A DNA stretch of 64,000 nt, taken from positions 3,683 through 67,682 of the forward strand of contig DASVFT010000166.1 of assembly GCA_036379935.1 (NCBI GenBank), in the 5' to 3' direction. This stretch comes from Solirubrobacteraceae bacterium (lineage in GTDB: Bacteria; Actinomycetota; Thermoleophilia; Solirubrobacterales; Solirubrobacteraceae). The notes under the pieces were generated by a model. It worked only from the letters and a program-made list of their open reading frames with translations. It was not told the origin of the DNA and did no database searches. The translations under genes were made by a program, and so were the position numbers. Within the stretch, counting starts at the first letter, position 1; each line of letters opens with the position of its first letter. Shown in pieces: positions 5,856-25,091 of the stretch.

Positions 5856-7494
5856 CCGCGAGCTCCAGCGACAGCAGGTCCTCCGTGGCCAGCTCGAGCC
5901 CCGTCAGCTTCTCGATGCGATCGAGGCGCTGACGCAGGGTGTTGGCGTGGATGAAGAGCTTGCGCGCCGTGCTGGTGCCCACACGGCGCTCGGCGAGGTA
6001 CTGCTCGAGCGTGGCGAGCAGCTGCGTCTCGCGGCGCTCGTCGTAGGCCAGCAGCCGCTCGACCGCCTCGCACAGGCGGTCGTGCGGCGCGTCGTCGAGA
6101 GCGAGGTGCACGAGGTAGCGGTACGCCCCCAGCTCGTCGTAGGCGAGCGCGCCACCGGCCGGGGTCAGGGCCCGCGCGATGGTGGCGGCGTCCTCGGCCT
6201 GGCGCAGGCTGTCGTCCGCGGCGTCGGCGCCCGAGCGCACGGCGCTGATGCCGATCGCCACGCCCTCGCTCGCGCCGAGGTCGCGCAGCGCCGCCACGTC
6301 ACCGCGCTCCGCGCCCTCCGCCAGGGGAAGCAGGCCCCGCAGCGCCTCGCGCCCCGCGTCCACGAGCGCTCCGGCCTCGAGGTTGCGCAGCCGCGTCTCC
6401 ACATGCCCGGCCACGGCGGGCCACGCCGGCGCGTCCTCGCCGTGGCGCACGGGACGGGCGTGGATGAAGACGTGGGGCCGGGCGAGGTCGCAGCCCGCGG
6501 CGCGCGCGTTCGCCTCGGCGATGTCGAGCGCGCCGTCCTCGAGCGCCTCGAAGAGCGCCCGGACCAGGTTCTCGGCCGTCAGGCGCTCGATGTGCTCGGC
6601 GTTGCGCAGCGCGAGGGCGGCCTGGTTGGCGACCGCCTGGAGCAGCTCCTCCTCGTGCTGGGCGGGCGACGCGCGCACGCCCGAGCGCACGGCGACGAGG
6701 GCCCCCAGCTCCTCGCGCTCGTCGCGCAACGCGGCGCGGCACTCGACGTGCGGCTCGGGGAGCTCGCCCGGCGGATCGGAGGCGACGAGCTCCAGCGCGC
6801 CGTCCTCGCGGTTACGCAGCTGCAGCTGGCAGGCGTCGCACCCCAGCAGCCGGCGCACGCCACCCGTGAGCACGCGGTAGAGCTCCTCGCGACCGTTGAC
6901 CGCGACGATCCGCTCGCTGAGCTCGGCGAGGTTGGTGAGCGCGTCGACGCGCAGGCGGGTCTCCTCGTAGAGGCGCGCGTTCTCGATCGCCCCGGCGACG
7001 AGCGAGGCGGTGTGCACAAGGAAGTTGAGCACGCCCTCGTCGAACTCGCGCGGCGCGGCGGTGTGCAGGACGACCACACCCAGCACCTCGCCCGAGCGGG
7101 CGGGCACCGGGACCGCCACCATCGACTGAAAGCGCTCCTCCTCGAGCTGGGGCACGTACTTCATGCGCGGGTCTGAGAGCGCGTCCTCGCGGATGAAGGC
7201 CGGCTTGCCGGTGCGCGCGACCCAGCCCGTCAGGCCCTCGTCGAGCGTGAACTCGATCTCGCCCACCAGGTGGGCGTAGATGCGCGACGCGGCGCGCATG
7301 CGCAGGCGCTCGCCGTCGCGCAGGTAGACGAAGCAGGCGTGGCACTCCGTCGCCTCGGTGACCAGCTCGACGATGCCGTTGAGGACGCGCGACAGGTCAA
7401 GCGAGGAGCCGACCGCGCTGATGATCGCGTACAGCGTGTCGGACTCGAGCCGTACCCGCTCGAGTTGTGCCGCCAGGTCGCTGCGCCCCGCCAC
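5800..7494 (-). CDS. GAF-domain / PucR-family transcriptional regulator
   Basis: 564 aa. The N-terminal region is GAF-like (VAVPVPARSGEVLGVVVLH). The C-terminus carries a PucR-type HTH (STARKLFIHANTLRQRLDRIEKLTG). It is divergent from the amt operon. Confidence 0.8.
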   Translation of the reverse strand: MAGRSDLAAQLERVRLESDTLYAIISAVGSSLDLSRVLNGIVELVTEATECHACFVYLRDGERLRMRAASRIYAHLVGEIEFTLDEGLTGWVARTGKPAFIREDALSDPRMKYVPQLEEERFQSMVAVPVPARSGEVLGVVVLHTAAPREFDEGVLNFLVHTASLVAGAIENARLYEETRLRVDALTNLAELSERIVAVNGREELYRVLTGGVRRLLGCDACQLQLRNREDGALELVASDPPGELPEPHVECRAALRDEREELGALVAVRSGVRASPAQHEEELLQAVANQAALALRNAEHIERLTAENLVRALFEALEDGALDIAEANARAAGCDLARPHVFIHARPVRHGEDAPAWPAVAGHVETRLRNLEAGALVDAGREALRGLLPLAEGAERGDVAALRDLGASEGVAIGISAVRSGADAADDSLRQAEDAATIARALTPAGGALAYDELGAYRYLVHLALDDAPHDRLCEAVERLLAYDERRETQLLATLEQYLAERRVGTSTARKLFIHANTLRQRLDRIEKLTGLELATEDLLSLELAVKLVRLRRAVVAEAPPRP

Positions 7495-7645: not shown

Positions 7646-9118
7646 ATGCTGTCGTTCATCTTCGCCCAGGTCAAGTCGCTCGAGGAAGCGGCCCCAACGC
7701 AGTCCCTGACGCAGGACTCCGCCGTCCTGGGCGAGCAGTTCTACTTCTTCACGGTCGTCTTGATGTGGCTGATCCACGCCGGCTTCATGTCCTACGAGGC
7801 CGGCGTCGCCCGACGCAAGAACGTCATGGCGACGGCGATGAAGAACATCCTCACGATCGCCGTCGTGACGCCGACCTTCTACTACTTCGGCTGGTGGGTC
7901 TACAACTGCAATCAGGCGGGCCTGCCGATCGGCCCCAACTCCTCGGACTTCACCGCCGCCGCATGCCAGGGCGGCATCCCGTGGAGTGACGCGTTCGGCC
8001 CCAACCTGACGAACAACATCAACCTGATCTTCTTCCTCGCCTTCCTGCTCTTCTCGTGGACGACGGCCTCGATCATGTCGGGCGCGATCATCGAGCGGGC
8101 GCGCATCTCGGCCTATCTCGTGCTCGCCGCCCTGCTCGGCTCGGTCGTGTGGATCCTCGACGCGGCATGGGGCTGGAGCGCGGGCGGCTGGCTCACCATG
8201 CGCTTCGGGTTCCACGACTCCATCGCCTCCGCGGTGGTCCACGGCGTGGCGGGAGCGTTCACTCTCGGGGTGCTGTTCAACGTCGGGCCGCGAATAGGCA
8301 AGTACACGAAGGACGGGCTGACGCGCGCGTTCAGGCCCCACAACCTGCACATCACCGCGCTCGGGCTGATGCTGATCTTCACCGGGTTCTACGCGTTCTA
8401 CGGCGCGTGCCTGGTGATCGCCTCGACCTCGTTCCCGGGGTGGGCCAACATCTACCTGAGCCCGACGACGCTCGGCTCGATCACCATGGTCATCACCATG
8501 GGGTTCGCGGGCGGCTTCACCGGCGGCTACTTCGCCAGCCGCGGCGATCCGTTCTGGACCATCTCCGGCGGCCTGGCAGGGGTCATCGGCGTCTCGGCCG
8601 GCGCGGACGTCTACGCACCGACCCTCGCCTACCTGGTCTCGATGCTCACGGCCGTCCTCGCGGTCTACGCCGGCGGCTGGATCGAGACCAAGATGCGCGT
8701 CGACGATGCCGTCGGGGCGGTGGCCGTGCACGGCTGCTCCGGCTTCCTCGGGATCCTGTGGGTCGGCGTCTTCGCCGCCGGATACCCGACGGGGATCAAC
8801 AACGTCGAGAGCTCGATCGGGGGCCAGCTCATGGGCCTGGCGACCTTCCTCCCGCTCGGCTTCCTGTCCGGCTGGGTGGCGTCCTACGTGCTCAAGCGCC
8901 TGAACCTCCTGCGCGTCCCCGTCGAGGTCGAGCTCGAGGGCCTGGACCTGGCGGAGTACGAGACCGACTTCTACCCCGAGCACGCCCGGGCGCCCGAGGT
9001 GATCGTCGAGCCCGACGGCTCGCTCACCCCGGGCGAGGAGCTGCTGCCGCGCGAGCTCGCGTCGCTCACCAACGGCGCCAGACCGAACGACCGAGTCGGC
9101 GCGGGAGTGGGGGGATAG
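7646..9118 (+). CDS. amt: ammonium (possibly methylammonium) transporter, Amt/MEP/Rh family
   Basis: 490 aa, polytopic. FHDSIASAVVHGVAGAFTLGVLF and VDDAVGAVAVHGCSGFLGILWVGVFA correspond to the conserved Asp and twin-His regions of AmtB. The SD sequence GAGAGGGGA lies upstream of the ATG. Confidence 0.9.
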   Translation: MLSFIFAQVKSLEEAAPTQSLTQDSAVLGEQFYFFTVVLMWLIHAGFMSYEAGVARRKNVMATAMKNILTIAVVTPTFYYFGWWVYNCNQAGLPIGPNSSDFTAAACQGGIPWSDAFGPNLTNNINLIFFLAFLLFSWTTASIMSGAIIERARISAYLVLAALLGSVVWILDAAWGWSAGGWLTMRFGFHDSIASAVVHGVAGAFTLGVLFNVGPRIGKYTKDGLTRAFRPHNLHITALGLMLIFTGFYAFYGACLVIASTSFPGWANIYLSPTTLGSITMVITMGFAGGFTGGYFASRGDPFWTISGGLAGVIGVSAGADVYAPTLAYLVSMLTAVLAVYAGGWIETKMRVDDAVGAVAVHGCSGFLGILWVGVFAAGYPTGINNVESSIGGQLMGLATFLPLGFLSGWVASYVLKRLNLLRVPVEVELEGLDLAEYETDFYPEHARAPEVIVEPDGSLTPGEELLPRELASLTNGARPNDRVGAGVGG

Positions 9119-9764: not shown

Positions 9765-10113
9765 CGCCCAGGCCCACGCCGGGCGCCCGACGTGGGTTCG
9801 GCCCGCCATCCTCGTCGTGGGCCTCTTCGCGATCTGCCTCGTGGTCGCCAGCAGCTGCCAGCGCCGCCAGGTCCGGATCACCAAGGAGGCGGCCATCGTC
9901 ACCGCCACGCGGGCGGCCGACTTCCGTCCGCAGCGCACGCAGGTGCGGCTCGTGCGCCAGGGCCTCAATGGCCATCCGTTCTGGGCCATCTCGCTCTCCA
10001 TCCCGCGCAAGGGGGGCAACGGCTACCAGCGCGTGTCCGTCGCCCGGGTCGACGCCAACAGCGGCAAGCTCGTGGCCTTCACCGAAAACGCAAGCACGGA
10101 AGGAGCGCCATGA
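9736..10113 (+). CDS. membrane-anchored PepSY-like protein
   Basis: 125 aa from a TTG start, with TM PAILVVGLFAICLVVASS. This is followed by ITKEAAIVTATRAA...GHPFWAISL...VARVDANSGKLVAF, which resembles a PepSY fold. The stop overlaps the GS-like ATG (ATGA). The start codon is uncertain. Confidence 0.45.
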   Translation: MATSSVRPSSAQAHAGRPTWVRPAILVVGLFAICLVVASSCQRRQVRITKEAAIVTATRAADFRPQRTQVRLVRQGLNGHPFWAISLSIPRKGGNGYQRVSVARVDANSGKLVAFTENASTEGAP

Positions 10114-11501
10114 GCGCAGCACAGGGAAGCGAGCCGCTCGTCGCTCCGCAGACGGCGGATGAGGTCCGCAAGCTCGCGCGCGACGGCGAGATCGAGTTCC
10201 TCTTCGCGCAGTTCGTCGATATGCACGGCAAGCCGAACGCCAAGCTCGTTCCGGCGCACCATCTGGACGACCTGCTCGCCGATGGCGCGGGCTTCGCGGG
10301 CTTCGCGGCCGGAGACATCGGCCAGGGCCCGCACGACCCCGATCTCATCGCCATGCCCGACGTGCGCAGCTACACGCCGCTGCCCTGGCGGCCCGGAGTC
10401 GCCCGCTTCGCGTGCGACGTCACAGTGGAGGGCGAGGAATGGCCGTACTGCCCGCGGACGATCCTGCGCCACCAGCTCGAGCGGGCCGCGGCCTTGGGCT
10501 ACGAGTTCCGCATCGGGGCCGAGCTCGAATACTTCCTCGTGCGCCGGCGCGAGGACGGCTCACTCGAGCTCGCCGATCGCTTCGACACGCTGGAGCAGCC
10601 TTGCTACGACATGCGCGGCCTGACGCGCAACCTCGACTTCGTCTCCGCGGTCTCGCGCAACATCACGGCGCTGGGCTGGGACAACTACGCGACCGACCAC
10701 GAGGACGCCAACGGGCAGTTCGAGCAGAACTTCGAGTTCGACGACGCGCTCGTCACCTGCGATCGCGCCGTCTTCTTCCGCTACATGGTCGAGGCCATGG
10801 CCCAGGAGCGCGGCATGCTCGCGACGTTCATGCCCAAGCCGTTCGCCCACCTCACCGGCAACGGCTGTCACTTCCACATGAGCCTCTGGAAGGACGGCGC
10901 GAACGTCTTCGAGGCCGATCCGGCCGACGACCCCCGTGGCCTGGGGCTCTCCGAGCTCGGCTACCAGTTCGTCGCCGGCCTGAAGGCCCACGCCAAGGCC
11001 TACATCGCGGTGACCGCGCCGACCGTGAGCTCCTACAAGCGCCTGGTGGTGGGCGCCCCGACGAGCGGCGCGACCTGGGCGCCGGCCTACGGCCGCTACG
11101 GCTACAACAACCGCACGCAGATGCTCCGCATCCCCGGTCCTGGCCGCATCGAGGACCGCACGGTCGACGGATCATGCAACCCGTACCTGGCCGCCACGGC
11201 GGTGCTGGCGGCCGGGCTGGACGGCATCGAGCGCGGGCTGGACCCGGGGGACCCCAACTCGCTGAACCTCTACGAGACCGACGAGGCCCAGCGCAAGGAG
11301 CTCGGCATCGACGTGCTGCCGGCCAACCTGCTCGACGCGACCCGCGAGCTCGAGCGCTGCGACGTCCTGCGAGCCGCGCTCGGCCGGGGGCGCGACGAGG
11401 ACTACCTCGACTACTTCGTGCGCTGCAAGCGGCGCGAGTGGCAGCAGGCCCACGAGCAGATCACGCAATGGGAGCTGGACCGGTACCTGCAGCTGTTCTG
11501 A
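10110..11501 (+). CDS. glutamine synthetase family protein (gamma-glutamyl-amine ligase candidate: GmaS/PuuA/GlnA3-like)
   Basis: 463 aa from the ATG at 10110 (SD GGAAGGAG). Motifs: ELEYFL, TFMPKPFAHLTGNGCHFHMSLW, NRTQMLRIP, EDRTVDGSCNPYL. Confidence 0.9.
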   Translation: MSAAQGSEPLVAPQTADEVRKLARDGEIEFLFAQFVDMHGKPNAKLVPAHHLDDLLADGAGFAGFAAGDIGQGPHDPDLIAMPDVRSYTPLPWRPGVARFACDVTVEGEEWPYCPRTILRHQLERAAALGYEFRIGAELEYFLVRRREDGSLELADRFDTLEQPCYDMRGLTRNLDFVSAVSRNITALGWDNYATDHEDANGQFEQNFEFDDALVTCDRAVFFRYMVEAMAQERGMLATFMPKPFAHLTGNGCHFHMSLWKDGANVFEADPADDPRGLGLSELGYQFVAGLKAHAKAYIAVTAPTVSSYKRLVVGAPTSGATWAPAYGRYGYNNRTQMLRIPGPGRIEDRTVDGSCNPYLAATAVLAAGLDGIERGLDPGDPNSLNLYETDEAQRKELGIDVLPANLLDATRELERCDVLRAALGRGRDEDYLDYFVRCKRREWQQAHEQITQWELDRYLQLF

Positions 11502-12340
11502 GCGACGAGCAGGTCGAGGCCTTCCACCGCGACGGCTTCCTCGTCATCGAGGAGGGCTTCATCTCCGACCGCACGATCGAGGCGCTGCGCGAGCGCTTCG
11601 ACCGGTTGTTCGCGGGCGAGTACGCCTCCGGCATCCAGCCCGACGAGGTCAACTGGAGACCAGGCCGCGATCCCGAGGACAGGACGCGGCAGATCTGCAA
11701 CGGCTGGCGGGCGGACGACATGATCGCCGCACAGGTGCTCAGCGAGCCGACGGGGCGCATCGCCGCCCGACTGATGGGCTACGGCGGCGCTCGCATCCTG
11801 CAGGACAACTGCCTCTGGAAGCCGCCCGGCGCGCGCTCGCTCGGCATGCACCAGGACGGCTCCTACGCCGACTACCTGGTCCCGGCGGAGATGATCACCT
11901 GCTGGGTGGCGCTGGACGACACCCGCGCCGAGGGCGGGACGATCGAGTACGCGCGCGGCTCGCACCGCTGGCCCAAGGTCCCACCCGACCGCGGGAGCTT
12001 CCACGCCCCGGACGACTGGCTGGCGCCGCTGCACGCCGCCGCGCCCGAGGGTGAGGAGCCCGAGGTGGTGCCGGTCGTGGTCAAGGCCGGCGGCTGCTCG
12101 TTCCACCACTCGCTCACCTTCCACGGCTCCGGCCCCAACGAGGCGACCACGCACCGGCGCGCGATCGTCTCGCACCTGCTGCCGGCTCAGGCGCGCTTCC
12201 ACCCGACGAACGTCGACCCGATCTACTCGCGCTACCGGCGCCGCGGCGACCTGTCGATGGACGAGTCGTTCTTCCCGGTGCTCTGGGACGAGGCCGGCGG
12301 GCGCACGTCCTGGCTCGACGAGTTGCCCAACCTCTCGTAG
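11468..12340 (+). CDS. phytanoyl-CoA dioxygenase (PhyH) family Fe(II)/2-oxoglutarate oxygenase
   Basis: About 290 aa. It has MHQDGSY (HxD) and TFHGSGPN (distal His), plus LSDEQVEAFHRDGFLVIE at the N-terminus. The only canonical in-frame start is the ATG at 11468, which overlaps the GS-like gene by 34 nt. The start is uncertain. Confidence 0.75.
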   Translation: MGAGPVPAAVLSDEQVEAFHRDGFLVIEEGFISDRTIEALRERFDRLFAGEYASGIQPDEVNWRPGRDPEDRTRQICNGWRADDMIAAQVLSEPTGRIAARLMGYGGARILQDNCLWKPPGARSLGMHQDGSYADYLVPAEMITCWVALDDTRAEGGTIEYARGSHRWPKVPPDRGSFHAPDDWLAPLHAAAPEGEEPEVVPVVVKAGGCSFHHSLTFHGSGPNEATTHRRAIVSHLLPAQARFHPTNVDPIYSRYRRRGDLSMDESFFPVLWDEAGGRTSWLDELPNLS

Positions 12341-12915
12341 CGCCCGCCGTGGAACAGCAGCGGCGTGCCCGGATGCTGGCGCGCGTACTCGACGCGCCCG
12401 AGGAAGAGCGAGTGGTCGCCGCCCCAGTACGAGCGCTCCACACGCGCCACGAAGTGCGCGAGCGCGGCTTCGACCAAGGGCGTGTCGCGCACGAGCTCGA
12501 AGCGCGGCTCCGGAGCTCCGTTCGCCACCCGCCCCGCGAAGCGATCCGAGAGCGCGCTCTGGGTCTCGCTCAGCACGCTGACGCCGTACCGGCTCCCCTC
12601 GTAGAGCAGGCCACACATCTTGGTCCGCCGGTCGACGGACACCAGCACGAGCGGTGGGTCGAGCGACACCGACATGAAGGCGTTGGCCGTCATCCCGTGG
12701 ACCTTCTCGCCCTTGAGCGTCGTGATCACCGTGACGCCGGTGGTGAACATCCCCAGCGTGCGGCGTAGAGCGGCCGCGGGATCGTCGCCCTCGTCGGCGA
12801 GGTCCGGCCGCTGGACCTCGGCGACCTCGTCGAAGCGGGTCTCTCCGATGCCGTCCGGGCCGGCCCAGCTGAGCGGGAAGTCGAACTCCGCGGGCGGGCG
12901 GGCGGCGTCGCTCAT
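12232..12915 (-). CDS. flavin reductase family protein (NAD(P)H:flavin oxidoreductase)
   Basis: 227 aa with FTTGVTVITT...HGMTANAFMSVSLDPPLVLVSV. It starts 1 nt after the stop of the upstream Tdm-like gene. Its low-complexity C-terminal tail is antisense to the PhyH 3' end. Confidence 0.8.
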   Translation of the reverse strand: MSDAARPPAEFDFPLSWAGPDGIGETRFDEVAEVQRPDLADEGDDPAAALRRTLGMFTTGVTVITTLKGEKVHGMTANAFMSVSLDPPLVLVSVDRRTKMCGLLYEGSRYGVSVLSETQSALSDRFAGRVANGAPEPRFELVRDTPLVEAALAHFVARVERSYWGGDHSLFLGRVEYARQHPGTPLLFHGGRYERLGNSSSQDVRPPASSQSTGKNDSSIDRSPRRR

Positions 12916-12916
12916 G

Positions 12917-15244
12917 TCATGCGCGCGGGCGGGTCTTGTCCGGGTCGTAGAACGGGAAGCGGACGACCTTGGCCGCGATGCGCTTCTGGAGCCCGTCGAG
13001 CTTGCCCACCTCGACCTCCGTGCCCAGCTCCGCGTACTGCACGGCCATGCGGCACAGCGCGACGTTCTTGCGCAGCGTCGGGCTGCGGGTGCCGCTGGTG
13101 ACGACGCCCACGCGCTGGCGGCCCACGTAGACCTCGTCGCCGTGGCCGGCGGTCTCGTTGCCCTCGAGATCGAGACCGACGAGCCGGTGCTGGGGGTGCG
13201 CCGCGCGCTCGACGAGCGCGTCCTTGCCGACGAAGTCCTCCTCGCCGTCGAGCTTGACCGCGAAGCCGATGCCGGCCTCGAAGGGGTCGACCTGGTCGTC
13301 GAACTCGTACCCGGCGAAGATGAGCCCCGCCTCGATGCGGATCATGTCCAGCGCCTCGAGGCCGAGCGGCTTGAGGCCGTGCGGCTGGCCCGCCTCCCAG
13401 ATGGCGTCCCACACGGCCGGGCCGTCGTCGGGGTGGCAGAACACCTCGTAGCCGAGCTCGCCCGTGTAGCCGGTGCGCGAGACCACGACGGGGACGCCGT
13501 CGTAGCCCCCGATGCGCCCGACGAGGAAGCGGAACCACTTCAGCTCGTCGAGCGGGGGCTGCGTCGGGGGCGTCCAGATGATCTGCTGCATGATCGCGCG
13601 GCTCTCGGGCCCCTGGACCGCGAGGTTGTGCAGCTGATCGGTCGAGGGCTTGACGAAGGCCTTCAGCGCGAGGCGCTCGGCCAGCTCCTTGAGCCAGACG
13701 CCGTCGTAGGGGTCGCCGCCGACGAAGCGGAAGTTGTCCTCGCCGAGGCGGAAGACGGTGGCGTCGTCGATCATCCCTCCGGTCTCGTTGCACAATGCCG
13801 TGTAGACCACGTGGCCGACCGCCAGCCGGCGCGCGTCGCGCGTGATCGCGCGCTGGATCAGCGTCTCGGCGTCGGGGCCGAGGACCTCCCACTTGCGCAG
13901 GGGGGAGAGATCCATGACGACCGCCTTCTCGCGGCAGGCCCAGTACTCGGCGATGGCGCCCTCGTTGTTGTAGCAATGGGGCAGCCAGTAGCCGCGGTAC
14001 TCCACGAAGCTCTCGGTCAGCGCGCTCGTGCGCGGATGGAAGGTGGTCTCCTTGGTCAGCACGGGCTCTGCCTCCGGGGTGACGCGATGGGCGATCGCCG
14101 CCGAGAAGCGGTTCTCAGGCGAGTACACGCGCACGTGGACGTCGGTGAGCTCCCAACCGTTGGCCGGGTCGATGTCGTCCGGGCACGCCGACGAGGCGCA
14201 GACCAGGTCGGTCATCGCCCGCAGCAGCACGTAGTCGCCGGGGCGCGACCAGGGCTCGTCGAAGAAGAGGACGTTGCTCGCGTCGAACCCGGTGTTGTAG
14301 AAGAAGTTGAGCGCCTCCCATCCCTTGCGCTCGGCGATGCCGTAGGGCGTGACCTGGCCGTTGAAGTTCGCCGTGCAGTTGATGTGGCCCGGATAGCCCA
14401 TGTCCTCGTAGTACTTCGAGGTGCAGGCCAGCGCGAAGGTGTCGTGACGCCCGACGGTGTCGCGCACGACCTCGACGAGCGGGTCCATGTCGACGTCGTA
14501 GAACTTGCCCTGAAGGCCCGGGCTCGGATAGGCCTGGCCCATCAGCGTGCGGGTCGTGGCGCCGTCGAGGCCGCGCTCGAGCCCCTTCTCGAGCTTGGCG
14601 CGATGGAAGGCCAGGAAGTCCGAGCACTGGCGCCCCTGGACGTCGATGACCTGGATGTACTCGCCCCGGCGCACCTCGTAGGCGAGCGCGCTCGCGAGGT
14701 CGACGCGGAAGTCGAGGCGCGGCTCGGCCAGCGGCGGCGGCAGCTCCACGTCGGTCGCGGGCCGCGGCGCGGCGCGGCGGATCTCGATGACGAGCGCCGA
14801 CGCCGGCGGATCGCCGTCCACCACGCGGCCTCCGGGCGCCGCCACGATGACCAGCGCGTCGCGCTGGGCGAGGAAGGCCTCCGAGGCGCCGGGCGGGCTG
14901 TCGCGGCCGAAGAGCAGCAGCGCCTTCGCGTCATGCGGGGCCAGCCCGCGCGCGTGCAGGACGGCCAGGAAGGCGTCGTCGGCTCCGCTGCGCACGAGCT
15001 CGCGCAGCGCACCGGCCGGCGCGTCGGCGCTGGCACCCAGGGCGCCGGGATCGTGGCGCCCGTCGGGCGCGAGGACGGTCAGCTCGGCCGGCTGCCCGCC
15101 CTCGACGTCGATCACCGTCATGCGGTCGTCGCCGCGCAGCTCGACGACGGTGGCCGAGCCGGGCCTGACCCACCAGGTCTCCAGGCTCGGATCGGCCGGC
15201 CTACGCCCGGCGACGAGCGGTCGACTGCCGGTCTCGATCGCCAT
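12917..15244 (-). CDS. DUF1989 + GcvT aminomethyltransferase fusion protein (TMAO demethylase Tdm-type architecture)
   Basis: 775 aa. The N-terminal ~400 aa hold DUF1989-like segments (VIDVEGGQPAEL; YIQVIDVQGRQCSDFLAF; CTSKYYEDMGYPGHINCTANF; VCASSACPDD). The C-terminal ~370 aa are GcvT-like (VVMDLSPLRKWEVLGPDA, SRTGYTGELGYEVF, IEAGLIFAGYEF). Confidence 0.8.
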   Translation of the reverse strand: MAIETGSRPLVAGRRPADPSLETWWVRPGSATVVELRGDDRMTVIDVEGGQPAELTVLAPDGRHDPGALGASADAPAGALRELVRSGADDAFLAVLHARGLAPHDAKALLLFGRDSPPGASEAFLAQRDALVIVAAPGGRVVDGDPPASALVIEIRRAAPRPATDVELPPPLAEPRLDFRVDLASALAYEVRRGEYIQVIDVQGRQCSDFLAFHRAKLEKGLERGLDGATTRTLMGQAYPSPGLQGKFYDVDMDPLVEVVRDTVGRHDTFALACTSKYYEDMGYPGHINCTANFNGQVTPYGIAERKGWEALNFFYNTGFDASNVLFFDEPWSRPGDYVLLRAMTDLVCASSACPDDIDPANGWELTDVHVRVYSPENRFSAAIAHRVTPEAEPVLTKETTFHPRTSALTESFVEYRGYWLPHCYNNEGAIAEYWACREKAVVMDLSPLRKWEVLGPDAETLIQRAITRDARRLAVGHVVYTALCNETGGMIDDATVFRLGEDNFRFVGGDPYDGVWLKELAERLALKAFVKPSTDQLHNLAVQGPESRAIMQQIIWTPPTQPPLDELKWFRFLVGRIGGYDGVPVVVSRTGYTGELGYEVFCHPDDGPAVWDAIWEAGQPHGLKPLGLEALDMIRIEAGLIFAGYEFDDQVDPFEAGIGFAVKLDGEEDFVGKDALVERAAHPQHRLVGLDLEGNETAGHGDEVYVGRQRVGVVTSGTRSPTLRKNVALCRMAVQYAELGTEVEVGKLDGLQKRIAAKVVRFPFYDPDKTRPRA

Positions 15245-15255
15245 GGGCAGGAAGG

Positions 15256-15454
15256 CTAGATGACTGATTCCGCGGCCCGCGCGGCCAGATGGCCGTGCAC
15301 CGTGGATGCCGGGCGACGCGGGCCGAAGGGGGACAGTGGCAGAGCGGGCACCGACGGCCGGAGGCCGTTGGTCGGTGACCTCTTCGGACCGTGGCGATCC
15401 GGCGCCGCGGGGCGCGGACAGATGGTCGTGGGCGTCGTGGAATCAGTCATCTAG
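15256..15454. repeat. 199-bp imperfect palindrome with 16-bp perfect terminal inverted repeats (possible MITE-like element or long RNA hairpin)
   Basis: CTAGATGACTGATTCC at 15256-15271 is the exact reverse complement of GGAATCAGTCATCTAG at 15439-15454. The interior is partly self-complementary with indels, and the apex lies near 15355-15362. It fills the whole intergenic gap, and the right arm contains the ACAD-fold gene stop codon. Confidence 0.75.
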
Positions 15455-16854
15455 GCCTTTCCGGCGGGCTCGCGCGCCTCGTCCTTGTCCGCCTGGTCGG
15501 CGAGCTGCTTGGCGAGTTCGCGCTTGGCCGCGGCGTCGAGCTTCTTGATCTCGTTCTCGACCACGCGGCGGTTGTACGTCTGGTTCCAGTAGTCGAGCGA
15601 CTCGAAGCCCAGCAGCACCGCCTTGCCGACGAACTGGCGCAGCACCTCGTTGGTCGGGCCCATGACCCAGCCGGCCTTGGCGTCACGCAGGTAGCGCTCG
15701 ATCTCCATGTCGCGCTTGTAGCCCGACCCGCCGCAGGCGTGGAGCATCTTGTCCACCACATGGGCGGTGTTCTTGGCGGCCTCGAACTTGATCTGCCAGG
15801 CCCAGTGCAGGTAATCGGCGCGCGCCGTCTCGCCGGGCTTGAGCTCTCGCCGGTTGTCGTCGGTGGCGCGGTCCATCGCCTGCGCGACCGAGAAGACGAA
15901 CAGGCGCGAGGCGTTGGTGTCCATCACGGCCTCGCCGACGTAGTCCTGGATCGTCGGGTAGTCGGCCACGCGCATGCCGACGTCGACGTGGCGCTTGCGG
16001 GTGGTGTGGCGCTTGGCGATGTCGATCGCGCCCATCGCGATGCCGTTCCACACCGACGAGGAGCCGATGAGGAACCACGGGTCGACGGCCTCGTCGTTGG
16101 AGGCGGCGCCGTCGCCGATCGGCCCGACGATCTGGTCGCCGGGGATCTCGATGTTGTCGACCTCGATCGGGCCCGACTGGTTGCCGCGCAGGCCCAGCGC
16201 GTCCCACAAGGAGGGCTGGGACTTGACGTGCTCGCCGTCGATGACGAAGACGGACAGGTCGTCGTAGCCCTTGAAGTCGGGGCTCGTGGTCTGCACGACG
16301 TAGAAGTCCGCGAAGCCGCCCGACGTGGTCCACGACGCCTTCTTGCGCACCTTGAAGCCGCCGTTGGCGCGCTCGGCGCCCGACGAGAACGGGTACCAGA
16401 AGTGCGAGCCGGTCTCCGGGTCCGAGTACGACAGCGTGCCGATCTTGCACTCGTTGAGGGGGCGGATGTACTTGTCGACGAGCTCTGGCGTCGGGCGCAG
16501 CATGATCGTGGCCACGGCGCCGGTGTGCATGACGTAGCACATGGCCGTCGACGCGCAGCCGTAGCGCGCCAGCGTCTCGCAGGTCATGCAGAAGGCGACG
16601 TGGTTCTCGCCCAGGCCGCCGTACTCCTCGGGCACGATGAGCGACAGGAAGCCGTTCTCGGCCAGGATCTCGAAGTTGCGCCGCGGGAAGAGCAGCTCGT
16701 CATCCGAGCGCTTGGCGTTGGCACGCAGCTCCTGCTCGCAGAGCTCGATGAGCTTCGTCCGCAGCTCCTGCTGGCGTTCCGTGAGGACCCAGTCGGGGTC
16801 CCAGTCGTATCCGAGCCCCCAGAAGGGCTCTCCTCCCCACGCCTTATCCGCCAT
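15451..16854 (-). CDS. acyl-CoA dehydrogenase-fold flavoprotein (possible two-component monooxygenase/oxidase component)
   Basis: 467 aa from the ATG at 16854 (SD GAGGAGAGG). It carries ALGLRGNQSG and ACGGSGYKRDMEIERYLRDAKAG ACAD-type motifs. About 60 aa form a charged C-terminal extension. Confidence 0.8.
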   Translation of the reverse strand: MADKAWGGEPFWGLGYDWDPDWVLTERQQELRTKLIELCEQELRANAKRSDDELLFPRRNFEILAENGFLSLIVPEEYGGLGENHVAFCMTCETLARYGCASTAMCYVMHTGAVATIMLRPTPELVDKYIRPLNECKIGTLSYSDPETGSHFWYPFSSGAERANGGFKVRKKASWTTSGGFADFYVVQTTSPDFKGYDDLSVFVIDGEHVKSQPSLWDALGLRGNQSGPIEVDNIEIPGDQIVGPIGDGAASNDEAVDPWFLIGSSSVWNGIAMGAIDIAKRHTTRKRHVDVGMRVADYPTIQDYVGEAVMDTNASRLFVFSVAQAMDRATDDNRRELKPGETARADYLHWAWQIKFEAAKNTAHVVDKMLHACGGSGYKRDMEIERYLRDAKAGWVMGPTNEVLRQFVGKAVLLGFESLDYWNQTYNRRVVENEIKKLDAAAKRELAKQLADQADKDEAREPAGKA

Positions 16855-16881
16855 CGCCTCTCCTCGGTCGGGGGATCGATC

Positions 16882-16895
16882 GTACAAACTTGTAC
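16882..16895. promoter_or_regulatory. 14-bp palindrome GTACAAACTTGTAC (candidate operator)
   Basis: Read directly. It lies 28 nt upstream of the ACAD-fold ATG, in the divergent 208-bp intergenic region. Confidence 0.35.
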
Positions 16896-17013
16896 AGAGC
16901 AACTTCTACCGCTCCCAGACTCGCCTGTCCATCCCGTGCGAGGTGAACGACGCATGGCACGCCGCCGTTGACGCTGTCCGGGGGGCGTGGTAGAAGACGC
17001 TCTGCCCGGCCGT

Positions 17014-17027
17014 GTACCAATTGGTAC
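17014..17027. promoter_or_regulatory. perfect 14-bp palindrome GTACCAATTGGTAC (candidate operator)
   Basis: Read directly. It lies 36 nt upstream of the APC permease ATG. It shares GTAC ends and symmetry with the site at 16882. Confidence 0.4.
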
Positions 17028-17062
17028 GAGCCTGCTGGGCGTCCCGTCGAGAGCGAGGGCCA

Positions 17063-18616
17063 ATGGCGTATGCCGAGGTAGAGGAGAGACAGCTACTCAA
17101 GGCGATGACATGGTGGGACGGGTTCGTCGTCGCGCTCGCGAACCCGGGCTTCCTGATCGCCGCGTTGGGCTCGTCGATCGGTGCGTTGGGGACGACGGGC
17201 GCGTTCGTGCTCTGGACCGTGTCGATCGTCTTCGGCGCGCTGCAGAACAACATCCATGCCGAGTTGGCGTGCATGTTCCCCAACAAGTCCGGCGGCATCG
17301 CCCTCTACGCGCACGAGGCGTGGCGCAAGTACCTCACCTTCATCGGCCCTGTGGCGACGTTCGGCTACTGGATCGGGTGGTCGGTCGTCCTGTCGATCAA
17401 CGGCCTCGTCGCCGGCACGCTGATCCAGGCCGAGTGGTTCTCGAAGAACACGTGGACCAAGAGCGGCGCGGGCTTCGACCTGTCGCTGCCGATCGTGATC
17501 GGCATCGGCCTGATCGTGCTCGTCTGGCTCTTCAACATCTACGGCGTGCGGCCGGCCGTGTGGTTCGGCTACGTGACCGGCGCCCTGCTGTGCGTCCCCG
17601 CGTTCGTGCTCATGTTCCTGCCCTACGTCACCGGTGACTGGCACAGCGCGAACATGCAGTGGAACATCGGCGCGGGCGGCGGCATCCCGCTCGTGCTCAC
17701 GTGGCTGTACTTCATGTGCTGGTCCTCGTACGGCATCGAGGTCGTCGCCACGTTCGCGCCCGAGTACCACGACACGGAGCGCGACACGCCGAAGGCCCTG
17801 CGCTCAGCGGCGCTCTTCTCCGTCGCGGTCTACGCCCTGCTGCCGCTCGGCCTGGGCGGCACGCTCGGCACGAAGGCGGTCGCCGACGACGCGACCTTCA
17901 TCGCCTTCTACACCCAGGCCTTCGACAAGATCGTGGGCCACGGGCTGACCAACGTGATGATCGCCTGCATCGTCGGCGGTCTCGTGCTGTCGATGAACAC
18001 GGCGACCATGGACGGCTCGCGCGCGCTCTACGGCATCTCGAAGGACGGGATGACGATCCGCGAGCTCGGAGTGCTCAACCGGTTCCGCGTCCCCGGGCGC
18101 GCGATGACGATCGACGCGATCCTCAACATCTTCCTGATCACCTACTTCACCGGAGTGCTGTCGATCCTCGCGGTGAGCAACATCGGCTACGTGTTCGCCA
18201 CATGCTGCGCGCTCGCCGGCTTCCTGCTGCTGCGCAAGGACCGGCCGAACTGGCCGCGCCCGATCCGCTTGCCCGACATCTGGGTGCCGATCGCCAGCGT
18301 GCTGCTGGCGATCAACGTCGTCCTCCTCATCGCCGGCGGCTTCCTGTACTCGGGCGGCTTCCTCGGCATCACGGGCTACGGCTATGGCTGGGACAAGACC
18401 CGCACGGGCCTGATCGTCCTCGTCGCGGCCTTCCTGCTCTACGTCTACCGGCACGTGGTCCAGGACAAGATCCCGCTGCGGCTGCGCGAGGAGGTCCCGC
18501 AGACGCCGGAGGACCTCTTGGTCCATCCCGAGCTGGCTCCCGCGGGCGTGGGCGACCCGGACGACCTCATCGCGACGGCCGGGCCCGCGCCGCCGCCGAC
18601 GTCGCCTTCGTCCTGA
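17063..18616 (+). CDS. APC-superfamily amino acid/amine permease
   Basis: 517 aa from the ATG at 17063 (SD GAGGG), with about 12 predicted TM segments. General APC features are present (GIALYAHEAWRKY, MNTATMDGSRALYGISKDG). Confidence 0.85.
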   Translation: MAYAEVEERQLLKAMTWWDGFVVALANPGFLIAALGSSIGALGTTGAFVLWTVSIVFGALQNNIHAELACMFPNKSGGIALYAHEAWRKYLTFIGPVATFGYWIGWSVVLSINGLVAGTLIQAEWFSKNTWTKSGAGFDLSLPIVIGIGLIVLVWLFNIYGVRPAVWFGYVTGALLCVPAFVLMFLPYVTGDWHSANMQWNIGAGGGIPLVLTWLYFMCWSSYGIEVVATFAPEYHDTERDTPKALRSAALFSVAVYALLPLGLGGTLGTKAVADDATFIAFYTQAFDKIVGHGLTNVMIACIVGGLVLSMNTATMDGSRALYGISKDGMTIRELGVLNRFRVPGRAMTIDAILNIFLITYFTGVLSILAVSNIGYVFATCCALAGFLLLRKDRPNWPRPIRLPDIWVPIASVLLAINVVLLIAGGFLYSGGFLGITGYGYGWDKTRTGLIVLVAAFLLYVYRHVVQDKIPLRLREEVPQTPEDLLVHPELAPAGVGDPDDLIATAGPAPPPTSPSS

Positions 18617-18631: not shown

Positions 18632-19039
18632 CTACTGCGGGCGCAGCTCCCAGCGGGGCAGGTGGGCGATGGCCTGCCGGTAGCGCCGTCGGTGGACGGG
18701 CCGCACGAAGACGAACCAGATCATCATCGCCATCGGCAGCAGCACGAACACGTTGAAGATGTTGCCGGTGAGCGTGAAGAAGATCGCCAGCGCGGCGACG
18801 ACCATGCCGAGGGCGATCGGCACCATGCGGAAGCGCCACTGGAGCCGCCGGATGGCCTCGTACTGCTCGGCCGGGATCTGGCGCGTGTCCCAGCGCTTGC
18901 CGCAGCGCTCGCACCGCCACTCCTCCCCGTAGCGCAGGTCGCGCTTGGAGCCGCACTCGCAGGTGACCGCGATCGGCGGGCCGCGCAGGACCGTGCCCGG
19001 CTGCTCGCGGCCGAGGCGCTCGCGCGGCCTTACGTCCAC
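18632..19039 (-). CDS. zinc-ribbon membrane protein (C-x-C...C-x2-C followed by 2 TM)
   Basis: VTCECGSKRDLRYGEEWRCERCGKRWD is followed by MVPIALGMVVAALAIFFTL and FNVFVLLPMAMMIWFVFV. It is the last gene of the operon. The only upstream in-frame start is the GTG at 19039, which overlaps the preceding stop. The start is uncertain. Confidence 0.5.
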   Translation of the reverse strand: MDVRPRERLGREQPGTVLRGPPIAVTCECGSKRDLRYGEEWRCERCGKRWDTRQIPAEQYEAIRRLQWRFRMVPIALGMVVAALAIFFTLTGNIFNVFVLLPMAMMIWFVFVRPVHRRRYRQAIAHLPRWELRPQ

Positions 19040-20274
19040 GGGTAGGGCCCCTTGGAGGCCGCGTGCGTCGCGCCCTGCGCGAAGCGGCCGAGGCGGAAGG
19101 CGTCCAGGAGCGGCTCGCCGTCGTCGAGGATGTCGTCGGCCGCGAGCCGGCCGATGGCCAGCGTCTTGAAGCCATGGCCGGAGTCGACGATCGCGTAGAC
19201 GTTGGGAAGGACCCAGTCGCACACGGGGTAATTGTCGGGTGTGTGGGGGACGATGCCGCCGTTGGCGGTCACGCTCCAGTCGTCCGAGCGCCCGCGGAAG
19301 CGCCGCAGCGCCCTGGCCAGCCCCGAGGTGAGGAACTCCGCGAAGGCCGGCTCGGCCACGTGCGCGGGGTTGCCCCAGCCGTACGGGTCGAGCTCGGGAT
19401 CGTCCAGGAAGACCGGCAGGCCGCCCCCCGCGATCGAGCTGCTGCCGCGGAAGTAGATCCCCCAGGGGCCGTCGACCAGGACGCGGTTGTCGCGATCGGA
19501 GCGCAGCGGCTCCTCCTGGTCGAGGTGCACGACCGGCGGCTCGGCGCCTGCGCCGCTCAGGCCCACGCCGCGCAGCTGGAACTCGCCCTCCTGGGCCTTC
19601 ATGTAGGAGACCAACGGGCGTGGCTTGCCGCCCACCTCGACCTCCGGGCTCAGGCCGAGCATCCTCCAGACGCCCGCGATCCACGGTCCCGGTGCGACGA
19701 TCACCGTCTCGCACGGCACGCGGCCCTCGCTCGTCGCCACGGCTCGCCCGTCGCGCTCGAAGCCGACGACCTCCACGCCCTCGCGGATCTCGGCGCCGGC
19801 CGCGCGCGCCCGGTGGGCGAGGTGGCGCACCGTCTGCATCGCGTCCGCCCAGCCTCCGCGGCGCTCGTGCAGCACGGCTTCGACCGGGGCGTCCCAGTCG
19901 GCCCAGGTCCACGACAGGTACTCGCGGCAGCGCTCCGCGCCAAGCACGAGCTCTGACTCGTACCCGGCGCGCTCGTGCTGCTCGCGGATGGCGACGAGGT
20001 CGTCGACCTGGCGCTCCGGCACCGCTGCGAGGTAGCCGACCTGCCGGAACCCGTAAGCCTCGGGCTCGGCCTCGAACATCTCCACCGACAGCCGCACGAG
20101 CTCGGTGATCGCCTCGGCCCGGTAGTAGTTGCGGACGATCCCTCCCGCGATCCCCGAGGCGCCGGCGCCCGGGCGCGCCTTGTCGAGCACGACCACGTCA
20201 GCGCCGCGCTCGGCGAGGCGCCAGGCGACCGAGAGGCCGTTGACCCCGCCGCCGACGACGACGTGGGACGGCAT
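19030..20274 (-). CDS. FAD-dependent oxidoreductase, DAO family (sarcosine-oxidase-beta-like), paralogue 2
   Basis: 414 aa with VVGGGVNGLSVAWRLAERGADVVVLDK (GxGxxG). It ends ...SKGPYPWT. The ATG at 20274 overlaps the upstream stop by 1 nt. Confidence 0.85.
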   Translation of the reverse strand: MPSHVVVGGGVNGLSVAWRLAERGADVVVLDKARPGAGASGIAGGIVRNYYRAEAITELVRLSVEMFEAEPEAYGFRQVGYLAAVPERQVDDLVAIREQHERAGYESELVLGAERCREYLSWTWADWDAPVEAVLHERRGGWADAMQTVRHLAHRARAAGAEIREGVEVVGFERDGRAVATSEGRVPCETVIVAPGPWIAGVWRMLGLSPEVEVGGKPRPLVSYMKAQEGEFQLRGVGLSGAGAEPPVVHLDQEEPLRSDRDNRVLVDGPWGIYFRGSSSIAGGGLPVFLDDPELDPYGWGNPAHVAEPAFAEFLTSGLARALRRFRGRSDDWSVTANGGIVPHTPDNYPVCDWVLPNVYAIVDSGHGFKTLAIGRLAADDILDDGEPLLDAFRLGRFAQGATHAASKGPYPWT

Positions 20275-21533
20275 CAGCTCCAGGGATACGGGCTGTTCGA
20301 CACCGGGTGCAGGTCGCCGGTGGCGAAGCGCTCGTAGCGGAAGGGGTGCAGCAGCGCGGAGTGCTCGCCCTGCAGCACGCGGGCGATCTCGCGGCCCACC
20401 GCGATCATCTTGTAGCCGTGGTTGGAGTCGGCCGCGACGAAGACGTTCGGGCGCATGTAGTCGAAGACGGGGAAGTTGTCGGCCGTGAAGGCGCCCACGC
20501 CGCCCGAGCGCGTCTGGCGGTAGCGCGGTCGCGAGCCCTCGAAGCGCTCCATGCAGTGCGAGAGCGCCGCGCAGAAGAGGTCGGGGAACTCCGGCTCGAC
20601 CGTGCCCGTCGGATAGGGGTCGAGCGCGAACTCGTGTCCCTTCGGCAGCGGTGAGGCGCCGCCCTGGACGCTGTGCTTGTCCTGCTTGTAGTAGATGCCC
20701 CACTGCTCGTCGGTGATGAGCCGCCCGTCGTCGTCGTGCAGCGGCGCGTGGCTGTCGACGTGGACGACCGGGGGCAGGGCGCCGTCGTTGGTGACGAAGA
20801 TCGCCGGATCGACGCCGATCTCGCCCTCCTGGAGGTACCAGTAGGTCCACATCTCGCGCTCGGAGCCCGCGACCTCCAGGCGCCGCGGCAGGCCGAGCAT
20901 CTCCCACAGCACCGGGATCCAGGGCCCCACAGCGACGATGACCTGCTCGACCGCGATCGCCCCGGCCGAGGTCTGCACGTGCGTCACCGCGCCCGAGCCG
21001 TCGAGGTCGAACCCGGTGACCTCGACGCCCTCCTCGATCTCCGCGCCGGCGGCGCGCGCCTTGGAGGCCAGGCCGAGCATGGAGTCGCGGTTGTAGGCGA
21101 ACCCGCCCGCCCGCTCGTGCAGGCAGACGCTCAGCCCCGGCGCCCGCCAGTCCCCGAACAGCGAGCGCATGTGCGCCGCCACCTCGGCCTCGCCGAGGAT
21201 GAGCTGCGACGGATAGCCGATCTGCTGCTGGCGCTCGTGGACCGTCGTGAGGTCGTCGACCTGGGCCCCGTCGCCCAGGGCGATGTAGCCCGAGCCGTGA
21301 TACGCGAAGGTCTCGGGGTCGGACTCCCAGATCTCCACGCAGGCGGCCATGAGCTCGGACATCGCCGGCTGGAAGTAGTTGTTGCGCACGACGCCGCAAG
21401 CGATGCCGGAGGCTCCGGCGGCCACGCCGGTCTTGTCGACGACGAGGACGTCCTCGCCCTGCTGGGCGAGGTGCCACGCCGTGGAGAGCCCGTGGACTCC
21501 CGCTCCGATGACGAGATGGCCGGTCGCGCGCAT
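20274..21533 (-). CDS. FAD-dependent oxidoreductase, DAO family (sarcosine-oxidase-beta-like), paralogue 1
   Basis: 419 aa with VIGAGVHGLSTAWHLAQQGEDVLVVDK. It ends ...SNSPYPWS and aligns by eye with the downstream paralogue along its whole length. Confidence 0.85.
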   Translation of the reverse strand: MRATGHLVIGAGVHGLSTAWHLAQQGEDVLVVDKTGVAAGASGIACGVVRNNYFQPAMSELMAACVEIWESDPETFAYHGSGYIALGDGAQVDDLTTVHERQQQIGYPSQLILGEAEVAAHMRSLFGDWRAPGLSVCLHERAGGFAYNRDSMLGLASKARAAGAEIEEGVEVTGFDLDGSGAVTHVQTSAGAIAVEQVIVAVGPWIPVLWEMLGLPRRLEVAGSEREMWTYWYLQEGEIGVDPAIFVTNDGALPPVVHVDSHAPLHDDDGRLITDEQWGIYYKQDKHSVQGGASPLPKGHEFALDPYPTGTVEPEFPDLFCAALSHCMERFEGSRPRYRQTRSGGVGAFTADNFPVFDYMRPNVFVAADSNHGYKMIAVGREIARVLQGEHSALLHPFRYERFATGDLHPVSNSPYPWS

Positions 21534-21534
21534 C

Positions 21535-21960
21535 TCAGTGGGCCGGCGCCTCCCAGCCCTCGAGCACGCCCGGCCGCCAGTCCTCGCCGACGGTCCGCGA
21601 GCCCTCGACCCAGGGGCCGAGCTCGGGCTGGGGGAACTTGCAGTGGGTCTCCTTGAGCCGGATGCCGTAGGAGTTGCCCGCCTGCAGATGCGCGATCAGG
21701 ACCTTGCGGGCGATCTCGTGCTCGCGCCCTTCGGGGATCGCGAAGTAGATCTTCAGGAAGGCGTTGGAGTAGCGGTCGAACACCGCCGGCGTCCCCTCTT
21801 CCTGCAGGAGCTCGATGTCCTCGAGCCAGTTGATGTCCTGCCCGGGCGTGGCGGCCTCGAGGTCGATGTCCTCGACGAGGCCGATGTCCTCCTGGTAGGG
21901 GAAGCGCTGCCCGGAGAGCTCCTCCGCGTCGAGGGCGACGATCTTGCGCGGCTCGCTCAC
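21535..21960 (-). CDS. hypothetical 141-aa acidic protein, translationally coupled inside the amine operon
   Basis: The GTG at 21960 forms a GTGA overlap with the upstream stop. The stop lies 1 nt before the next ATG. The composition is non-biased (…DRYSNAFLKIYFAIPEGREHEIARKVLIAHLQAGNSYGIRLKETHCKF…). I do not recognise a family. Confidence 0.6.
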   Translation of the reverse strand: MSEPRKIVALDAEELSGQRFPYQEDIGLVEDIDLEAATPGQDINWLEDIELLQEEGTPAVFDRYSNAFLKIYFAIPEGREHEIARKVLIAHLQAGNSYGIRLKETHCKFPQPELGPWVEGSRTVGEDWRPGVLEGWEAPAH

Positions 21961-25089: not shown

Positions 25090-25091
25090 GG

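Follow-up and report, generated by a model that had tools for sequence, protein, structure and literature searches.

The 64,000-nucleotide stretch analysed here (the window; positions 3,683 to 67,682 of contig DASVFT010000166.1, Solirubrobacteraceae bacterium) carries a gene for a 775-residue protein that is, with very little doubt, a true trimethylamine N-oxide (TMAO) demethylase (Tdm), as judged from its sequence. Tdm itself is ordinary here; what makes the locus interesting is an uncharacterised flavoenzyme with the fold of acyl-CoA dehydrogenases (ACADs), which is coupled to Tdm throughout the phylum and probably forms, together with a flavin reductase, a flavin monooxygenase of two components that is devoted to methylated amines. 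The explanation as a whole, a Tdm that resides in a methylated-amine island and is served by such an oxygenase partner, is one in which we place good confidence, and the reaction of the partner is assigned more tentatively below. The genes on which the argument turns are the following.

12917–15244, reverse strand: tdm, TMAO demethylase, 775 amino acids, recognised by NF053776, PDB 9q59, Pfam domains and conserved residues
15451–16854, reverse strand: ACAD-fold flavoprotein (the partner), 467 amino acids, with all ACAD domains and without the catalytic glutamate of ACADs; candidate oxygenase component
12232–12915, reverse strand: NAD(P)H:flavin reductase of the HpaC/StyB type, 227 amino acids (Flavin_Reduct, 7e-34)
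11468–12340, forward strand: PhyH-family Fe(II)/2-oxoglutarate dioxygenase, 290 amino acids (open reading frame call; PF05721 in relatives); candidate dimethylamine (DMA) N-demethylase

The initial annotation had described the tdm open reading frame (ORF) as a fusion of a DUF1989-like region with a complete GcvT-type domain, and domain profile searches bear this out, with DUF1989 itself confined to residues 181–348 (161 bits) and followed by a complete GCV_T domain at 403–662 (228 bits; profile positions 2–255 of 255) and GCV_T_C at 687–767. The ORF is intact, starts with ATG and has a GC content of 0.96 at third codon positions (GC3), and the two cysteine-bearing strings quoted earlier, CTSKYYEDMGYPGHINC and VCASSACPDD, are both found in its translation. 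Residues 1–180 correspond to the poorly conserved DUF1989-like N-terminal domain that is common to all Tdm proteins (PMC12560246, PMC13619132); the domain order is therefore a DUF1989-like N-terminal domain, a Zn-binding DUF1989 catalytic core and a GcvT-type tetrahydrofolate (THF)-binding domain. The NCBIfam equivalog NF053776 for TMAO demethylase, a model built on the Methylocella silvestris enzyme, gave 1187.8 bits against a cut-off of 1100 over model positions 11–763 of 763, and a search of the whole genome with this model had the same outcome as that of the single protein. The cryo-EM structure of Paracoccus TDM (9Q59, 9Q5A, 9Q5L) was matched with E = 3.7e-275 over residues 17–775, which are colinear with residues 28–787 of 9q59, N-terminal domain included. 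A better fit to DUF1989 proteins linked to urea metabolism had been named as a result that would speak against Tdm. The models for urea-amidolyase-associated proteins (UAAP1/UAAP2), TIGR03424 and TIGR03425, reached 80.1 bits (cut-off 284.7) and 54.1 bits (cut-off 206), respectively, and because both lie so far under their cut-offs this assignment can be set aside.

Comparison with characterised Tdm proteins at the level of single residues led to the same result. The chain numbering of 9Q59 equals that used for the Paracoccus enzyme in PMC13619132, so that the residue roles described there for the Zn, substrate and THF sites could be transferred directly. Conservation was judged on an alignment of 125 sequences, among them Tdm from Rhizobium etli and three Tdm sequences of other actinobacterial families. 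The Zn ligands Cys274, Cys290 and Cys354 correspond to Cys285, Cys301 and Cys365 in Paracoccus and to Cys263, Cys279 and Cys343 in M. silvestris, and they are invariant in all 125 homologues. Equally invariant are Asp209 and Asp356, the equivalents of TMAO-binding Asp220 and product-binding Asp367 of Paracoccus, as well as His287 and Asp357, the equivalents of M. silvestris His276 and Asp346, which have been proposed as residues of an Fe site (PMC12560246). The THF pocket is formed by Arg469, Phe571, Phe661 and Lys770 (Arg480, Phe582, Phe672 and Lys782 in Paracoccus), of which Arg469 and Phe661 are invariant, and Phe571 and Lys770 are present in 124 of the 125 sequences. All published metal, substrate and THF positions, of which the initial annotation had suggested inspecting the metal ligands, are thus retained. 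By homology to the Paracoccus enzyme, TMAO would be bound via its oxygen to the Zn ion that Cys274, Cys290 and Cys354 coordinate within the DUF1989 core and split there into DMA and formaldehyde; the formaldehyde would then travel along a tunnel inside the protein to the GcvT domain at the C terminus, to be fixed on THF as 5,10-methylene-THF.

The initial annotation knew this architecture only from Proteobacteria, which is true of the literature but not of the databases: Tdm is not confined to Proteobacteria. The host genome is a 3.85-Mb metagenome-assembled genome (MAG) of 176 contigs, 94.5% complete and with 72% GC, and belongs to the Thermoleophilia within the Actinomycetota. In a scan with one genome per species we obtained at least 599 pattern matches, at least 578 of which encode a Tdm relative. 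The best 80 of the 578 among the matches listed, with Tdm identities of 71–87%, are referred to below as the 80 Thermoleophilia loci; all of them stem from MAGs of Thermoleophilia or, more broadly, Actinomycetota. Their labels include Thermoleophilaceae, Gaiellaceae and Solirubrobacterales, others read just Actinomycetes or Actinomycetota, two bear the evidently wrong label 'Bifidobacterium breve', and most originate from soil surveys. Thousands more homologues, annotated only as 'aminomethyltransferase', are present in a non-redundant collection of about 5.8 billion proteins predicted from publicly available genomes and metagenomes. Within the class, Tdm is a minority trait (10 of 151 sampled genomes), and in a sample of 401 Actinomycetota genomes it was found in 10, six of them from three other families; both samples are small, and the genomes in them are not phylogenetically independent. 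Tdm (785 amino acids) is also encoded by Carbonactinospora thermoautotrophica (GCA_026614415.1), an actinomycete available in culture. In the literature, which our search covered incompletely, we found no description of a Tdm from Thermoleophilia or other actinobacteria.

The gene directly upstream of tdm and on the same strand is the one for the ACAD-fold flavoprotein, already noted in the initial annotation, and its association with tdm proved to be very tight. According to tblastn, an ortholog occupies this position in 79 of the 80 Thermoleophilia loci, and in the 80th (L019) the C-terminal codons of an ACAD-fold gene abut the tdm start. The two genes also adjoin each other in each of five loci added from the phylum sample, four of which belong to other actinobacterial families; in Carbonactinospora the order is flavin reductase–ACAD–tdm in one operon. 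The same 10 of the 401 genomes in the phylum sample hold both genes, and in the class sample the partner is present in 10 of 10 Tdm genomes and in three further genomes that lack Tdm. The estimated median distance between the stop of the ACAD-fold gene and the tdm start is about -1 nucleotide in relatives. Identities between loci range from 78 to 94% for the partner versus 71–87% for Tdm, i.e., the partner is the better conserved of the two. On the other side of tdm, the flavin reductase gene follows after a single nucleotide, as had been reported (tdm stop TGA at 12919–12917, ATG of the next gene at 12915). A flavin reductase gene lies within 10 kb of tdm in most of the 80 loci, not always adjacent to it, and also occurs in two other loci (L107 from Carbonactinospora and L108).

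The partner has the ACAD fold but has lost the catalytic base of the dehydrogenases. The catalytic YEGT motif is changed to MGPT, which replaces glutamate with glycine at the position of E376 in medium-chain acyl-CoA dehydrogenase, and a tryptophan occupies the alternative base position known from isovaleryl-CoA dehydrogenase (E254). MGPT is invariant in 25 homologues of the partner, and the partner forms a sharply delimited subfamily of its own. An ACAD fold without the catalytic base and a flavin reductase gene nearby, the features by which ACAD-fold two-component flavin monooxygenases are recognised, are both found here. The best NCBIfam models for the reductase are those of StyB, HpaC and HsaB, all under cut-off; for the partner the best model is that of the Rv1679/FadE16 family (219 bits, cut-off 600), no model being passed, and DnmZ aligns to it with E = 6e-12. 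Searching a plasmid collection with the partner returned only ACADs of 33–35% identity in uninformative contexts. Tdm copies on alphaproteobacterial plasmids show 56–59% identity to the Tdm described here. As far as the literature was covered, which was incompletely, neither an ACAD-type nor a two-component monooxygenase for trimethylamine (TMA) or DMA was found to be described.

The third line of evidence comes from what is missing. An annotated plasmid of Rhizobium etli, on which the canonical tmm and dmmDABC genes are found near tdm, provided Tmm, DmmC and DmmA as queries. Neither DmmC nor DmmA had a match in the 94.5% complete genome studied here, the only match similar to flavin-containing monooxygenases (FMOs) reached 25–46 bits, and a TMA dehydrogenase (TMADH) was not found in this genome either; the earlier statement that flavoenzymes flank tdm in place of dmm genes is thereby confirmed and extends to tmm. 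Nor did any of the 19 genomes with an ACAD-fold gene yield Tmm or DmmC. As a positive control, these queries were run against the 401 Actinomycetota genomes, where Tmm found one ortholog (60% identity) in a genome without Tdm, and DmmC found two to three (34–49% identity) in genomes without Tdm or the ACAD-fold gene. It is because the partner lacks the dehydrogenase base, a flavin reductase is encoded nearby and the canonical monooxygenases were not found that we infer a two-component oxygenase.

Two steps of the pathway are left without a known enzyme here, the oxidation of TMA to TMAO and the conversion of DMA to monomethylamine (MMA), and the conserved genes of the cluster include two oxygenases without an assigned step, the ACAD-fold/flavin reductase pair and PhyH. 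For the pair we give preference to the oxidation of TMA, an assignment that falls slightly short of being probable and ranks above the conversion of DMA to MMA and, after that, above other roles taken together. In that case the pair would N-oxygenate TMA to TMAO, the substrate of Tdm, and the PhyH-type dioxygenase would act as DMA demethylase. In favour of this distribution of tasks, the partner is coupled almost exclusively to Tdm, is encoded upstream of it and is translationally coupled to it in relatives. Moreover, clusters that bypass TMAO rarely contain the gene: among 80 metagenomic loci for TMADH-like proteins, with a core of genes for an APC permease, a TMADH-like protein and electron-transferring flavoprotein (ETF) and with long flanks in more than 12 cases, an ACAD-fold gene is present in just two, as compared with GcvT in 36 and PhyH in 10. 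There are established examples of N-oxygenases with the ACAD fold and a separate flavin reductase, namely the isobutylamine N-hydroxylase VlmH/VlmR and the nitrososynthases, and N-oxygenation is classical flavin-hydroperoxide chemistry, just as N-demethylation through hydroxylation of a methyl group is classical for Fe(II)/2-oxoglutarate enzymes. Of 15 other Tdm-bearing genomes, 13 have an ortholog of PhyH, in many cases encoded immediately 3' of tdm; no such ortholog was seen in the three genomes that contain the partner but not Tdm. Since PhyH tracks the enzymes that produce DMA, Tdm as well as TMADH-like proteins, it is the better candidate for the DMA step.

A number of observations weigh against this picture. 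The partner aligns best with genuine ACADs (E about 1e-35), and models for characterised two-component oxygenases (DszC, HsaA, SfnB, C2-HpaH and nitrososynthase) score only 44–61 bits with it, far under their cut-offs. An AlphaFold2 model of the partner, calculated from 25 sequences that are all more than 81% identical, was too poor to use (mean pLDDT 49). A Gaiellaceae MAG (G051, locus L097) encodes an 80% identical ortholog of the partner and not a single DUF1989 domain in its whole genome; the neighbours are genes for a TMADH-like protein (PDB 1DJN, E = 2e-262), ETF and a stand-alone GcvT. Furthermore, a clade of partner proteins with 60–63% identity is encoded in GmaS-MgsABC(-SoxA/D-like) clusters together with a permease and a flavin reductase, again without Tdm. 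TMAO would lead nowhere in either setting, and these occurrences of the partner without Tdm remain unexplained if it oxidises TMA. Import of TMAO by the permease encoded next to the partner could also make the oxidation of TMA unnecessary, and a hairpin-forming repeat in front of tdm, described below, may lower its expression. The possibility that Tdm is split into separate proteins in G051 was considered and rejected, as no DUF1989 domain is encoded anywhere in that genome.

The strongest alternative, which we consider possible but rather unlikely, is that the pair constitutes a two-component DMA monooxygenase (DMA + O2 + reduced flavin yielding MMA and formaldehyde), i.e., a non-homologous replacement of DmmDABC, with TMAO taken up via the permease. 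It would account for the presence of an MMA pathway in the island when DmmC and DmmA are undetectable, and for the two Tdm-less settings just described. It would also suit a locus in which a TMADH-like gene adjoins ACAD-Tdm-PhyH (L120), where two producers of DMA would share one consumer, and the failure to find a PhyH ortholog in two of the 15 Tdm-bearing genomes. Flavin-dependent N-dealkylation has precedents in the nitrilotriacetate and EDTA monooxygenases, but hydroxylation of an unactivated N-methyl C–H bond is less typical of flavin hydroperoxides than N-oxygenation. A consumer of DMA should, however, accompany TMADH-like genes, and as stated above the ACAD-fold gene does so in two of the 80 loci only; the gene common to Tdm and TMADH-like clusters is instead that for PhyH, often together with GcvT, and some of the TMADH-like loci show a GcvT-PhyH-APC-TMADH-ETF operon. 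The order of the partner followed by tdm likewise suits a supplier of substrate rather than a consumer of product. On the basis of the Tdm-less genomes (G051, G069 and G033), a DMA monooxygenase was at one point the leading interpretation, and it was demoted when PhyH and GcvT recurred in the 80 TMADH-like loci.

It is improbable that the ACAD-fold gene has nothing to do with the oxygenation of amines and encodes, for instance, a dehydrogenase, whether for acyl-CoA, an acyl carrier or another substrate, or else a protein that has no catalytic role beside Tdm or helps in its assembly, with the flavin reductase serving elsewhere. The best matches to genuine ACADs and to the Rv1679/FadE16 family would be in line with such a role, and so would the facts that the flavin reductase is not always adjacent to tdm and that it occurs in a TMADH-like locus devoid of an ACAD-fold gene (L121). 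On the other hand, glutamate is missing at both known base positions of ACADs, co-occurrence and adjacency with Tdm are perfect over several actinobacterial families with the partner being more conserved than Tdm, and every context of the partner that we have seen, including those without Tdm, is a methylated-amine cluster.

Regarding the TMADH-like loci in their own right, soil and sediment metagenomes (L097 and L111–L190) contain many clusters of genes for an APC permease, a TMADH-like protein and ETF, often following genes for a stand-alone GcvT and PhyH. The best family match of this stand-alone GcvT is the C-terminal half of Tdm. The clusters apparently represent an undescribed actinobacterial TMA dehydrogenase route.

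The junction between the ACAD-fold gene and tdm is unusual in the genome studied here. The palindrome that the initial annotation had placed ahead of tdm was located at the following position.

15256–15454, no strand assigned: dispersed palindromic repeat resembling a miniature inverted-repeat transposable element (MITE), 199 bp, an imperfect inverted repeat

Its arms of 76 nucleotides are 71% complementary and end in perfect termini of 16 bp; CTAG is present at both ends, and the left terminus overlaps the TAG stop codon of the ACAD-fold gene. At least 15 copies exist in the same genome, four of them full-length with 95–97% identity on other contigs, and there is a variant family of about 172 bp with 82–84% identity. 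Because the junction measures 2–22 nucleotides or is an overlap in relatives, the repeat is best seen as a MITE-like insertion that breaks translational coupling at this site. In the ACAD-tdm transcript it is predicted to form an RNA hairpin of -111 kcal/mol (z -5.4). The native spacer of 11 nucleotides that precedes the ATG, CCTTCCTGCCC, does not contain a purine-rich Shine-Dalgarno (SD) sequence either, just as had been read before. A scan of positions 12100–17100 for sigma-70 promoters found none and is uninformative for an actinobacterium with 72% GC.

It is very unlikely that Tdm of this lineage prefers another N-oxide or a quaternary or tertiary amine, or that it is poorly expressed here owing to the repeat: identity to the characterised proteobacterial enzymes is only about 57–60%, Tyr316 takes the place of substrate-site Phe327 of Paracoccus, and tdm is separated from the upstream gene by the hairpin-forming repeat without an SD sequence at its ATG, but the equivalog cut-off is exceeded, all ligand and substrate-contact residues are kept, the column of position 316 alternates freely (65 Phe and 60 Tyr among 125, with Tyr also in Rhizobium etli), and the ORF is intact with its high GC3.

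The genes around tdm form a methylated-amine island, which in addition to those already listed comprises the following features and a gene for a GntR regulator.

742–3666: second MgsABC-like trio
5800–7494, reverse strand: GAF-PucR transcriptional regulator (domain profiles)
7646–9118, forward strand: Amt-family (methyl)ammonium transporter (domain and family profiles)
10110–11501, forward strand: type III glutamine-synthetase-like ligase, GmaS candidate (TIGR03105, 605 bits, cut-off 469.6)
17012–18616, forward strand: APC-family permease, divergent from the ACAD-fold gene (AA_permease_2)
19030–20274 and 20274–21533, reverse strand: two tandem DAO-type FAD oxidoreductases (domain and family profiles)
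21957–26660, reverse strand: MgsABC-like trio (GATase, GXGXG, Glu_synthase) and a second glutamine-synthetase-like ligase (25092–26660), N-methylglutamate pathway block

The PhyH gene overlaps the stop codon of the GmaS-like gene, and its 3' end is in turn overlapped by 109 nucleotides (12232–12340) by the convergent flavin reductase gene. The overlapping part of the reductase is a low-complexity C-terminal tail of about 31 residues that is not conserved; tblastn against relatives covers residues 8–196 only, and the proteins of relatives comprise 174–201 amino acids. The APC permease is a probable importer of methylated amines or TMAO, to judge from its family and from relatives encoded beside Tdm and TMADH-like genes alike. 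Its best NCBIfam match is the TMAO permease TmoP, but the score of 200 bits is far below the cut-off of 690, and the permease encoded next to tdm in Rhizobium etli is only 26% identical to it, so that a true TmoP ortholog was rejected. GAF-PucR-type regulators are also encoded beside ACAD-fold homologues in other genomes. Between 19030 and 21960, the two DAO-type oxidoreductases and a 141-residue protein of unknown function occupy the place after the MgsABC-like trio at which one would expect MgdABCD; the tandem pair is a candidate for N-methylglutamate oxidases or dehydrogenases that take the place of MgdABCD.

When compared with the known Tdm proteins (Methylocella silvestris Msil_3603, Paracoccus sp. 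DMF, Ruegeria pomeroyi and SAR11), the protein described here has the same three-domain architecture, the same three-cysteine Zn site, the pairs Asp209/Asp356 and His287/Asp357 and identical residues in the THF pocket. As in the tdm locus of Rhizobium, a divergently transcribed APC permease gene is located near tdm. Unlike in proteobacterial tdm loci, neither tmm nor dmmDABC was detected in the genome, and tdm forms an operon with genes for an ACAD-fold protein, a flavin reductase and, often in relatives, PhyH. The pair resembles Tmm in the step that it would catalyse, TMA to TMAO, and in its tight genetic pairing with tdm. However, Tmm is a single-component class B enzyme that uses FAD and NADPH and has the FMO fold, whereas the partner is non-homologous, possesses the ACAD fold and would depend on a separate flavin reductase. 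In this respect it is similar to VlmH/VlmR, DnmZ/KijD3/ORF36, DszC, HsaA and SfnB, the group D monooxygenases, which share the ACAD fold, the lack of the catalytic glutamate and a separate HpaC/StyB-type reductase gene; it differs from them in being closer to true ACADs, with 47–61 bits for the models of DszC, HsaA and SfnB. In its alternative role, DMA to MMA and formaldehyde, the pair would resemble DmmDABC, with which it also shares the association with a GcvT-type THF domain, residing in DmmD in the canonical system (PMC5520151). The heme-, FMN- and Fe–S-containing multi-subunit enzyme DmmABC and the partner are not homologous.

Tdm is thus a member of a known family, and for the operon we infer a known pathway in which, throughout a phylum, unrelated and uncharacterised enzymes take the place of the canonical monooxygenases. 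The case is evenly balanced for the broader proposition that Actinomycetota, notably the abundant soil Thermoleophilia, run a largely non-homologous aerobic TMA pathway, in which the ACAD-fold/flavin reductase pair replaces Tmm or DmmDABC, PhyH performs the other oxygenase step, the DAO pair replaces MgdABCD, and only Tdm, GmaS and MgsABC are common with Proteobacteria. Methylated amines are a significant pool of nitrogen and one-carbon (C1) units and precursors of climate-active aerosols, and their aerobic breakdown is annotated almost wholly with the proteobacterial markers tmm, tdm and dmmDABC. Actinomycetota that carry Tdm without the canonical monooxygenases would therefore be missed by surveys based on tmm or dmm. 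Many bacteria with tdm are devoid of any known DMA monooxygenase (Lidbury et al. 2017, PMC5520151), and this gap would be directly concerned if the TMA or the DMA step were confirmed to have a non-homologous enzyme. As a cultured carrier of the whole module, Carbonactinospora thermoautotrophica is a ready experimental model.

Some of the more distant surroundings deserve mention. In two close relatives (L008 and L009), the tdm operon is followed by genes for proteins of the phosphoribulokinase family and the LysR type, for serine-glyoxylate-aminotransferase-like and malyl-CoA-lyase-like enzymes and for an FTCD_C protein similar to methenyl-THF cyclohydrolase, which suggests a serine cycle or C1 assimilation in these Thermoleophilaceae. 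FolD, FchA-like, FTHFS, DAO and IclR genes are found near the flavin reductase-ACAD-tdm operon of Carbonactinospora. Finally, a metagenomic contig from Chloroflexota (L109) encodes an ACAD-fold homologue with 72% identity to the Tdm-less clade in a cluster with a stand-alone DUF1989 protein of 218 amino acids, an APC permease, a second ACAD, a PNPOx-type flavin protein, a stand-alone GcvT and hydantoinase A/B. Here another phylum may have the Tdm module in split form.

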